Below are positions 29,618 to 32,044 of a stretch of 64,000 nt of DNA, in pieces; the stretch's first letter is position 1; every line of letters starts with the position of its first letter. Source of the DNA: Polyangiaceae bacterium (GTDB lineage: Bacteria > Myxococcota_A > Polyangia > Polyangiales > Polyangiaceae); assembly GCA_044376115.1 (NCBI GenBank), contig JBILLK010000010.1:1-64000 (forward strand), read 5' to 3'. A program made the position numbers and the translations under genes. The notes beneath the pieces were generated by a model. It was not told the origin of the DNA and ran no database searches. It saw only the letters and a list, made by a program, of their open reading frames with translations.

Positions 29618-30949
29618 GTGGGCGATCGCAGTTGGCTCTTCATCGGCTTGGCGGTGGTCCTGCACGGCGCCTTTCTCGAGGCGGCGCGCAGGGCGCCGGA
29701 GACGAACTTGCTGTCGACGCGGCTCGGGAACCAGGAGGCACCGCTAACGTGGCTTGACGTCGTCGGCCCAGATGCCGAGCAAGCCGCGCCAAAGCCGAAC
29801 GCGCTCGTGACTACCCAGCCCACGCCATCACCCGAAGCGGCGTCCAAGCCCACGGCTGAGCCAACTGCCCCGACAGAACGCGCCGACGCGCGGCCAACCC
29901 CGGCGACTACAAGAGATGCCGCCGCGCTGAGCGAGAGCGAAGCAGCAGCCGAAGCGGACGCTGCGGCCGAAGCGGACGCTGCAGCCGAAGCGGAGGCTGT
30001 AGCAACCGGAGCGGAGGCTGCAGCCGAAGCCAGCGCCGGTTTGCAACCAGGCCCTGCAACGCCATTGGACGGTCCAGGCGAGAACGGCTGGAGTGAGCCG
30101 GAGCTCGCCGCGAACCCGCTCGATCCAAGCGGCTTGGGCCTGAATCTCGCCGCCGCCATCGCTCTCAATGAAGCTGCAGCCCCCGCCGCTCCCACCGAGA
30201 TCAAGGCGCCGACGACCTCTCCTCAAAAAGCCGCTTCCGAGTCGGTGCAATCCACCCTGATCGGCAGCGACAAGAAGGTCGGCATCGATTTGCCGGCAAC
30301 GCAGGTGGTGGTCGGAGCGGTGGCGACCGCGACGCGCGCTCTCCCAGTTGCGCACAACACGCGCGCATCCTTCGAGGTGAAGCTTGACGGCAGCGGCAAA
30401 GTCACCAGCGTTCGCGTGCTCAAGGCATCCGGCGGTGACGCCGCAACGTGGAGCGGAGCAGCGAAGGCTGCCGCCGCAAGTTTGAACGGCAGGCTGTTGG
30501 GCTTAGGCGGGGCGAAGGGCGTGGGCGCGACGGTGACCGTCGATGTGAAAGTGCGCCACGTGTTCCCCTCCGGCTCGGCGAAGGGCGCGGACGTGAAGCC
30601 GGTGTGCGCCAATCAGATCATCAACGACATTGCGGAAGCGGCCAGCAGCGGGAAGACCAAAGACGCCGGGGAGACGCCAAACGTGCCGCTGTTCACCGAT
30701 GAGAACGGTCGGCCCTGTATCCCAGTTGGAGTGAACGTCGTCTCCGACGAGACGAACATTGGCGCGACCAAGCAGATCCAGGTGCAAACGTCGTCACGAG
30801 TTACCGTGAACGGGCGCGCTGCCTTGCCGGCTGAACTACAGGCGGTCAACAAGGACCCCTTCTGGGTGAAGTCCACCTCAGATGCCCCGCGAGCCGTAGC
30901 GCCCTTCCGCGTGCGCAAGTTTCAGCGCGAACGCGAGAAGAAGAAGTAG
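29618..30949 (+). CDS. TonB/TolA-like protein (N-terminal TM, Ala/Glu/Pro linker, TonB-C-like domain)
   Basis: LAVVLHGAFL helix; AAAEAD repeats; ASFEVKLDGSGKVTSVRVLKASG. Confidence 0.6.
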   Translation: MGDRSWLFIGLAVVLHGAFLEAARRAPETNLLSTRLGNQEAPLTWLDVVGPDAEQAAPKPNALVTTQPTPSPEAASKPTAEPTAPTERADARPTPATTRDAAALSESEAAAEADAAAEADAAAEAEAVATGAEAAAEASAGLQPGPATPLDGPGENGWSEPELAANPLDPSGLGLNLAAAIALNEAAAPAAPTEIKAPTTSPQKAASESVQSTLIGSDKKVGIDLPATQVVVGAVATATRALPVAHNTRASFEVKLDGSGKVTSVRVLKASGGDAATWSGAAKAAAASLNGRLLGLGGAKGVGATVTVDVKVRHVFPSGSAKGADVKPVCANQIINDIAEAASSGKTKDAGETPNVPLFTDENGRPCIPVGVNVVSDETNIGATKQIQVQTSSRVTVNGRAALPAELQAVNKDPFWVKSTSDAPRAVAPFRVRKFQREREKKK

Positions 30950-30952
30950 GCA

Positions 30953-31010
30953 CAAAAAAAAGAAGCGCCTGCTCGACGGTTGGGGGGGGAACTCCGTCAC
31001 AGGCGCTTCA
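30953..31010 (-). ncRNA. Putative sigma54-dependent single-hairpin sRNA with poly-C loop (Pxr-like)
   Basis: UGAAGCGCCUGUGACGGAGUUCCCCCCCCAACCGUCGAGCAGGCGCUUCUUUUUUUU; stem starts at the predicted +1 and ends in a U-tract. Confidence 0.75.
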
Positions 31011-31020
31011 GTTTCTACTA

Positions 31021-31036
31021 AGCAGGGCGCGTGCCA
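31021..31036 (-). promoter_or_regulatory. Sigma54 -24/-12 promoter of the sRNA
   Basis: TGGCACGCGCCCTGCT, near consensus TGGCAC-N5-TTGCW. Confidence 0.8.
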
Positions 31037-31147
31037 ATCGCTTGGCAGTCGAAGCGCAGGCAATTCACGCAAATTGTCGCGAGGAGAAGCAAGTTGGACC
31101 GTGCGAAGGTGAAACCGGCCTTCCGATCTTGAACGGTGATAGCCAGC

Positions 31148-32044
31148 TCAGGAACCAGGGTGAAACGCTGCGTAGGCGGTGTTCATGAACTCGGCGAACA
31201 GCACCTCACGCATTGGATCGAGCGGAAGAAACTCGATGCCAAGCACAAAACCCCCGTCGGTAGGTCCAACGGTCCGCACCACGCCATCACGGCGGAAGGA
31301 GAAGCTGGTGCCGGGTTGAATCAGGTTCAAGATCACCTGCTCGCCGCTCGCGACCTGGCCGTCCGATACAAGCACTGTCGCGCCGAGCATCGAGACGGTT
31401 GTCGTGAAAGCGGTGTGGATGGAGCGACTTGTTCGGAGCCGGAGCTCCAGCCGAAGATCGACCCGTGGAGCACGGCGACGATCGGGCCCTAGATACGGCG
31501 CCTTCGGAGCGGGAGGCTGCACAGGCGGAGACGCGGGCGGCGGCGGAGGTGCATGCGCCGGAATGCCCGGTTGAGAGCGCCCAGGGGGCAGAGGCGGTGG
31601 AAGCGGGGGAGCAGCCCCGACTTGCGGTGGCCCAGGCGGAGCTTGGTGCGCGAGTTCGGCCGAGCGACGACTCGGCGGTGCCGCCGGCGGAGGCCGGGGA
31701 GGTGGGCGAACGGCAGCCGCATTGGGGTCAGGCGGTAGCAGAGAGACCCGCACGAGCCCCTGCACGAATTCGTCCCAGTCGGCGTTGGACGTCCGCCCGA
31801 AGAACTCGAGCCCGACGCGCGCGCCCTCGGCATGGACGACCATCGCGTGGGCGCTGAAGGGCTTGCCGGTGGGCAACTCCATCTCGACCTGCACCAGCTG
31901 CCGCAGCGGAGGTGCCTCGTCCATACGCAACGACAAGCCGTGAAAACTCACGTTGGTTACGGAAGCCGCCAGGGGCTTCTTGCCGATCTTGAGGACCGCA
32001 GCGGCTTCCACTGGAAACCTTCGGTCACGGCGCCGTTCGTTCAT
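31148..32044 (-). CDS. Tandem PilZ-domain protein with Pro-rich linker
   Basis: RRDRR...NVSFHG and RRAPR...TVSMLG. Confidence 0.85.
   Translation of the reverse strand: MNERRRDRRFPVEAAAVLKIGKKPLAASVTNVSFHGLSLRMDEAPPLRQLVQVEMELPTGKPFSAHAMVVHAEGARVGLEFFGRTSNADWDEFVQGLVRVSLLPPDPNAAAVRPPPRPPPAAPPSRRSAELAHQAPPGPPQVGAAPPLPPPLPPGRSQPGIPAHAPPPPPASPPVQPPAPKAPYLGPDRRRAPRVDLRLELRLRTSRSIHTAFTTTVSMLGATVLVSDGQVASGEQVILNLIQPGTSFSFRRDGVVRTVGPTDGGFVLGIEFLPLDPMREVLFAEFMNTAYAAFHPGS

Follow-up and report, generated by a model that had tools for sequence, protein, structure and literature searches.

The window, a 64,000-nt stretch of a Polyangiaceae genome, carries on its minus strand one of four conserved sibling genes of its source genome. 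In the reading favoured here (probability about 0.6), these genes encode PxrR-driven RNAs of about 56 nt that repress translation by pairing of a C-run loop with G-rich leaders. An orthologue of PxrR would switch on each sibling gene together with sigma54, and the transcript would be a single hairpin of about 56 nt, ended by its own U tail. The C-run loop, borne by the terminator stem, would pair with G-rich mRNA leaders and repress translation without Hfq; the pxrR leader is possibly among the targets, which would create feedback on the activator. Judged from sequence, transcription of the sibling genes is highly probable and their activation by PxrR probable, and the copies form a real, uncatalogued small-RNA family whose transcript is predicted. 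Directly observed are the anatomy and copy number of the gene, its conservation and covariation, its independence from neighbouring genes, a palindrome shared with pxr and a PxrR orthologue in the genome. The preliminary description missed that the gene belongs to a multicopy family, sometimes arranged in tandem arrays.

Pxr is the best-studied regulatory RNA of myxobacteria, with a seed and targets that are as yet ill-defined. The 56-nt family has kept the essential loop together with the control region and nothing else, and it occurs in the culturable genera Sorangium, Polyangium and Minicystis; Sorangium and Polyangium are major producers of natural products. With this family, the activity of the C-loop apex on its own, the age of the PxrR-sRNA circuit and a feedback of the RNA on its activator become testable. 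Searches of the literature, chiefly outside subscription journals, returned no description of the one-hairpin family and no regulatory sRNA described for Sorangium or Polyangium.

Locus and family of the predicted RNA

The locus on the minus strand and its two neighbours comprise the following features.

31121-31134, minus strand: distal Pxr-type palindrome, 98 nt upstream of the sigma54 box; a putative PxrR site, degenerate (2 mismatches)
31101-31114, minus strand: proximal palindrome of the pair, 78 nt upstream of the sigma54 box; differs from the relaxed consensus by 1 mismatch
31021-31036, minus strand: sigma54 -24/-12 promoter box; a sequence match, conserved across the family, with rpoN in the genome
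30954-31010, minus strand: predicted small RNA of about 55-57 nt, one hairpin plus U tail; start deduced from promoter spacing
30962-31009, minus strand: stem of 16-17 bp with a two-base 3' bulge, also the intrinsic terminator stem; from fold and covariation
30980-30993, minus strand: exposed 14-nt loop with C8 at 30989-30982, the likely pairing seed; from sequence, predicted unpaired
30952-30961, minus strand: U8 (30961-30954), then a GU that is conserved across family copies
31148-32044, minus strand: gene for a tandem-PilZ protein, a neighbour outside the RNA gene; its mRNA may also end at the hairpin
29618-30949, plus strand: gene for a 443-aa protein, the convergent neighbour; no Pfam or NCBIfam match

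Re-reading of the sequence confirmed the sigma54 box (31036-31021), hairpin, C8 loop and U8 tail given in the preliminary description. Transcription from sigma54 promoters starts soon after the -12 element; this usual spacing puts +1 at about 31010, and a transcript of about 57 nt is therefore predicted. The earlier drawing of the stem needs one small correction: in the upper part, the U shown against three bases most likely pairs with G, leaving a two-base bulge in the 3' arm; this U-G pair of the window copy is C-G in 5 of 27 copies. Folding of a 71-nt stretch gave -27.5 kcal/mol (z -4.4), a stability equalled by 0 of 200 shuffles, and the loop was predicted to be unpaired in the 57-nt transcript. 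No ATG-started frame was found in this predicted transcript, in line with the earlier statement that it holds no ORF. The Rfam scan of the locus returned no family at gathering score (best 14.8 bits versus cut-offs of 37-100), and ARAGORN detected 0 tRNA or tmRNA genes between 29500 and 32500.

Three further copies in the source genome were detected by BLAST, which also gave 2-5 matches per genome in all 10 genomes of the same genus and no match in 14 other genera of the family. Two covariance models were used, one limited to the hairpin (R1) and a broader one (R2). With R1, exactly four strong copies were obtained in the source genome (65-80 bits, at C4, C94, C24 and C84) and the next independent match reached only 21 bits, which argues that the hairpin is more than chance. 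With R2 at E≤0.005, 82 of 151 Polyangiaceae-level genomes were positive, with 1-15 copies each. Weak matches were given by 13 of 150 other genomes of the class; several of the R2 matches outside Polyangiaceae are single C-loop hairpins with a sigma54 box.

Named genomes were also scanned with a pattern (48 of 64 parts covered), giving at least 123 loci. At least 113 of these lie in Sorangium, Polyangium, Minicystis, Polyangiaceae and related bins, which agrees with the Polyangiaceae context proposed earlier. The 10 matches in unrelated taxa were without promoter or model score and were for that reason judged to be chance. Loose patterns yielded chiefly noise, and viral contigs searched for the family gave 0 matches.

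Comparison of the copies indicates that the hairpin structure and the loop are under selection. In an alignment of 84 distinct rows, which was fitted to the model and so leans towards it, 14 of 16 pairs change on both sides, and 0 of 500 shuffles reach that value. In an unfitted alignment of 27 rows, 97% of the cells pair and two-sided changes occur in 4 of 16 pairs. A C run of 6-11 is kept in the loop of all 85 aligned members. The stem sequence is near-invariant, its bulge is fixed and the UUUUGU end is conserved; after the U tract, GU is present in 135 of 169 copies of the family, versus 31 of 248 other hairpin-U5 sites of the genome.

Some copies are arranged in tandem. In Minicystis rosea, five 55-nt units lie head to tail behind one sigma54 promoter (L134:282-554), and four units are found at L067:3520-3739; L051 and L047 also hold arrays behind a single sigma54 promoter. 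Two- and three-unit versions are present in genomes G174 and G069. The arrayed units are identical over 55 nt, and every unit retains its own U tract and GU junction. The simplest reading would be leaky termination, with or without cleavage at the GU junction. Tandem units that each bear a terminator are an unusual route to a higher sRNA dose.

Other hairpin forms were seen as well. Two-hairpin RNAs lie downstream of a sigma54 box at L105, L297, L062, L065 and L066, with C loops in both hairpins at L105 and L297 and in the last hairpin only at the others; L105 holds three two-hairpin copies within 0.8 kb. Such RNAs are possible intermediates between the one-hairpin and the Pxr forms. A subfamily (L064, L070, L085, L091, L106) has an extra apical helix that closes a UUCCCCCCC loop; promoter and palindromes are present, and it occurs alongside the main type in some genomes. 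At L125, L149, L152, L158 and L200, the loop is expanded, up to about 25 nt, by repeated U/C units. Another order of the class has a conserved hairpin with a single C loop and a different stem sequence (L286, L287, L289, L292, L295); 4 of these 5 have a sigma54 box, and L286 is truncated at the contig end. At L063, L078 and L094, hairpins with a C loop and a U tail are without a sigma54 box and share another motif upstream; they possibly form a separate family under another sigma factor.

Promoter, upstream palindrome and PxrR

The hairpin is mostly preceded by a sigma54 box, in support of the earlier view of a self-contained sigma54-dependent sRNA gene. A strict sigma54 box begins 18-30 nt before 67 of 84 hairpin-model matches, compared with 670 of 50,000 random windows (1.3%). 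These 84 remain of 94 model matches once echoes on the reverse strand (5), duplicates (2) and inner units of arrays (3) are taken out. The strict box is missing in 17: eight are second units in arrays or in two-hairpin RNAs, several show a near-miss box and about five are without a clear box. The box was found before 105 of the 113 named myxobacterial loci listed and before 0 of the 10 non-myxobacterial pattern matches. All four genomic copies carry the -24 box, and rpoN is present in the source genome. A count of 27/27 in the 27-copy set was set aside as evidence because that set had been preselected on the promoter.

Further upstream, the palindrome YTKCA-N4-TGMAA is found before 100 of 120 members, usually paired at about 20-nt spacing (pairs in 60); its consensus was drawn by eye from these very sequences, and kin are non-independent. 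The same palindrome precedes 10 of 10 true pxr genes. In controls, it was present at 14 of 437 sigma54-like sites of the genome, a set that includes the family copies, and in 14 of 1,200 shuffles. The strict pair occurs three times in the source genome, twice before a family copy. The two palindromes of the window copy are degenerate and do not match the strict double pattern; they lie 20 nt apart, which is the spacing before true pxr genes, and are kept in the G004 orthologue (L002). Across loci, promoter and palindromes travel with the hairpin. An IHF-like element peaks 20-30 nt before family promoters and 40-50 nt before pxr promoters but is poor in the window copy; it is taken as a hint. 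A scan for the PxrR regulon with relaxed patterns gave 34 sites, chiefly noise.

One PxrR orthologue is encoded in the source genome (55% identity; 379 bits versus 289 for the next of 59), and it is by far the best helix-turn-helix match. In a tree of 72 sequences, PxrR forms an exclusive clade with support 1.0. A single PxrR match was obtained in 137 of 151 family genomes, and many PxrR-bearing genomes are without a detected family hairpin. Of 40 relatives, 26 have the palindrome no more than 300 nt downstream of pxrR, in most cases accompanied by a sigma54 box; this placement ties the palindrome to PxrR. The family hairpin was sought in roughly 440 nt after pxrR in 40 relatives and none was seen; a small receiver-domain gene follows pxrR in 20 of 40, in place of an RNA.

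At L248-L285, about 100-450 nt past the pxrR stop, the position occupied by pxr in Myxococcus is taken in many Polyangiaceae (20 of 40 loci) by a small gene for a single-domain response regulator behind the same palindromes and a sigma54 box; this regulator is likely to be a conserved member of the PxrR regulon. In the source genome, pxrR (L245:4800-7904, G000:C67) lies between bacterioferritin and queA-tgt, with queA following it; bacterioferritin precedes pxrR in several relatives too. Repeated C-rich/G-rich palindromic units were observed directly downstream of pxrR at L265 (G162).

Candidate targets and mode of action

Base-pairing is the mode of action that we hold to be rather likely. 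A search for the Hfq family in the source genome (96% complete) gave no match, the control being positive in 5 of 14 genomes; pairing would thus be Hfq-independent, as reported for Pxr.

In the pxrR leader of the source genome, a G7 run with AAA after it lies 40-46 nt upstream of the start. This run pairs over 9 bp with the loop of the window copy (-20.4 kcal/mol), and pxrR ranks 17 of 8,228 predicted genes for loop pairing, these genes being our own crude calls and pxrR having been singled out before G-runs were listed. The run lies outside the ribosome site, and the local fold pairs part of it. Among 40 chosen pxrR orthologues, a run of G5 or more at -20..-4 was found in 14 (11 of 30 genera); the controls gave 61 of 5,693 genes in the source genome, 1 of 99 among genes at family loci and 1 of 20 among orthologues of the receiver gene. 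The remaining 26 orthologues, including both same-genus genomes tested (G002, G007), are without G5 at the ribosome site, and the run does not track with the RNA (12 of 30 genomes with a hairpin match, 2 of 10 without). Inheritance of a G-rich ribosome site would account for this pattern equally well. As a target, and as the basis of a feedback loop, pxrR is therefore proposed only tentatively from its leader sequence.

A homopolymer loop gives little target specificity, and a genome-wide profile of G-runs had no enrichment near start codons. The latter result fits the main rival to repression by pairing, in which the same genes are transcribed but their RNAs serve as decoys, sequestering a protein that binds C runs, or else another G-rich RNA, much as RNAs of the CsrB/RsmZ type titrate their protein. 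A dosage-driven sponge would also suit the up to 15 dispersed copies per genome and the identical units placed head to tail, as well as the near-invariant stem with its fixed bulge, the UUUUGU end and the U/C expansions of the loop. However, the G-runs at pxrR ribosome sites exceed the controls, and Pxr, with the same apex, is reported in the accessible text of a preprint to contact several mRNAs near Shine-Dalgarno sites in M. xanthus, an organism without Hfq (bioRxiv 10.1101/2025.09.11.675593). We regard titration as unlikely, though as the rival to be taken most seriously.

Comparison with known RNAs and with neighbouring genes

Pxr gates fruiting-body development in Myxococcus; it is described as having arisen in, or being confined to, Cystobacterineae (PMC5568312, PMC8538405). 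Its transcription is under PxrR/PxrK control, and the RNA, which is processed to a long and a short form, acts as a block on development. Ten true pxr loci were retrieved from metagenomes with a motif taken from published primers, 10 of the 11 pattern matches being Pxr, and they scored 111-129 bits with the Pxr model (cut-off 80) as a positive control. The 101-nt stretch of the window gave no match with this model at E≤10, and the family model scored 11-19 bits on SL3 and 8 bits on SL1 of Pxr. The best genomic match to the Pxr model (18.4 bits) was rejected: it is an unrelated terminator, flanked by an old-yellow-enzyme-like gene on one side and a convergent gene on the other, and no sigma54 box was seen there. 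Pxr was found by model in 0 of 151 genomes of the phylum sample, and the published primer gave 4 two-mismatch chance matches in 401; neither search had a positive control, and these blanks say little.

The family lies outside RF01812, since its RNA has one hairpin, is without SL2 and without SL3 (a stem-loop with a conserved 8-bp segment in Pxr) and is not placed beside pxrR, and since neither model recognises the other family. The hairpin makes up an RNA of about 56 nt, whereas Pxr is described as having three hairpins in about 109 nt (RF01812; available parts of PMC5684412, PMC5568312, PMC10217877). Unlike in Pxr, the seed loop of the family sits on the terminator stem, the second and third stem-loops are absent and the stem starts at the predicted +1. 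Copies are dispersed, 1-15 per genome, away from pxrR, whereas pxr lies directly downstream of pxrR in Myxococcus.

Shared with Pxr are the sigma54 promoter, the upstream double palindrome, a PxrR orthologue in the genome, the type of loop apex, similar 5' letters at the stem base, the lack of Hfq and the occurrence of paralogues, some in tandem. The apex of the first Pxr stem-loop is GG-UU-C7-ACC, which is matched exactly by 11 of 85 family members and loosely by 69 of 85; the apex of the window copy is GG-AGUU-C8-AA-CC, the exact Pxr apex being absent. Changing C to A in this first Pxr loop, or deleting it, is described as abolishing function (PMC5684412, in the part available). The C-rich loop had previously been assigned to the terminal stem-loop of Pxr; in the Rfam consensus, the terminal loop is without a C run, so this was the wrong loop, the essential C-rich one being the first. 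Of the proposal that the RNA is a relative or analogue of Pxr, the common loop apex, palindrome and PxrR orthologue speak in favour.

On these likenesses in sequence, common descent of the family and Pxr is slightly favoured. More speculatively, the family might represent an ancestral, self-standing Pxr module that predates the divergence of the myxobacterial lineages, that multiplied in Polyangiaceae into siblings and arrays with units cut or read through at UUUUGU, that feeds back on pxrR and from which the three-hairpin Pxr of Myxococcus was built. If that holds, Cystobacterineae did not invent Pxr de novo, and development in Sorangium and Polyangium would be gated by an RNA that has gone unrecognised. 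That the family gates development as Pxr does is conceivable but doubtful.

C-rich loops are found in other sRNAs too: sX13 and RsaE-type RNAs, for example, are anti-SD sRNAs with C-rich loops. NfeR1/cuckoo, LhrC and sX13 resemble the family in using unpaired C-rich loops as seeds and in being multicopy, but their seeds are mixed U/C in multi-hairpin RNAs, whereas the family has a pure C6-11 run in one hairpin. Comparison with Rfam, including the anti-SD sRNAs with C-rich loops, gave no match. NfeR1 is described as feeding back on NtrBC, the two-component system that controls it (PMC10746234, in the part available), and is thus a precedent for the feedback proposed on pxrR.

It is conceivable that a real sigma54-dependent sRNA family under another enhancer-binding protein converged with Pxr, the C loop being a generic anti-SD solution as in LhrC, NfeR1/cuckoo and RsaE-type RNAs. 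Such loops arose many times, as far as the partly available sources describe, neither covariance model recognises the other family and no copy was seen beside pxrR. Convergence is nevertheless quite improbable: the palindrome pair at about 20-nt spacing is common to pxr and the family, two of the three strict pairs in the genome precede a family copy, and the palindrome also stands right after pxrR in relatives.

For the preferred reading of PxrR-driven siblings, the Qrr RNAs of Vibrio offer a parallel. Qrr RNAs are multi-hairpin and Hfq-dependent; they are controlled by LuxO and sigma54 and feed back on luxO. The likeness consists in dispersed sibling sRNAs, one sigma54 activator and possible feedback on the activator mRNA; the family has no sequence similarity to Qrr (no Rfam match). 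Qrr1-5 are described as sRNA paralogues in the accessible part of PMC5568312.

It is very improbable that the hairpin merely terminates the PilZ mRNA, as an intrinsic terminator, or belongs to a repeated cassette of terminator or REP-like type, with an incidental promoter match: the hairpin and U8 do sit between convergent genes, 139 nt past the PilZ stop, with a family copy between the PilZ gene and the 443-aa gene in 12 genomes, but the other three genomic copies have unrelated neighbours in all orientations, the RNA gene is inverted relative to PilZ at this locus in genome G064, promoter and palindromes accompany the hairpin, and a terminator needs no conserved loop.

The inverted copy in G064 means that the RNA gene does not depend on the PilZ transcript. 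With three of four copies elsewhere, the link to PilZ suggested in the preliminary description found no support; at the window locus, the hairpin may serve as the end of the PilZ mRNA as a side job. A cis-antisense or toxin role was rejected, there being no conserved partner on the opposite strand and the neighbours varying between copies. The 443-aa protein (29618-30949) has a low-complexity middle and a conserved C-terminal half, and its gene is paired with the PilZ gene in 12 genomes.
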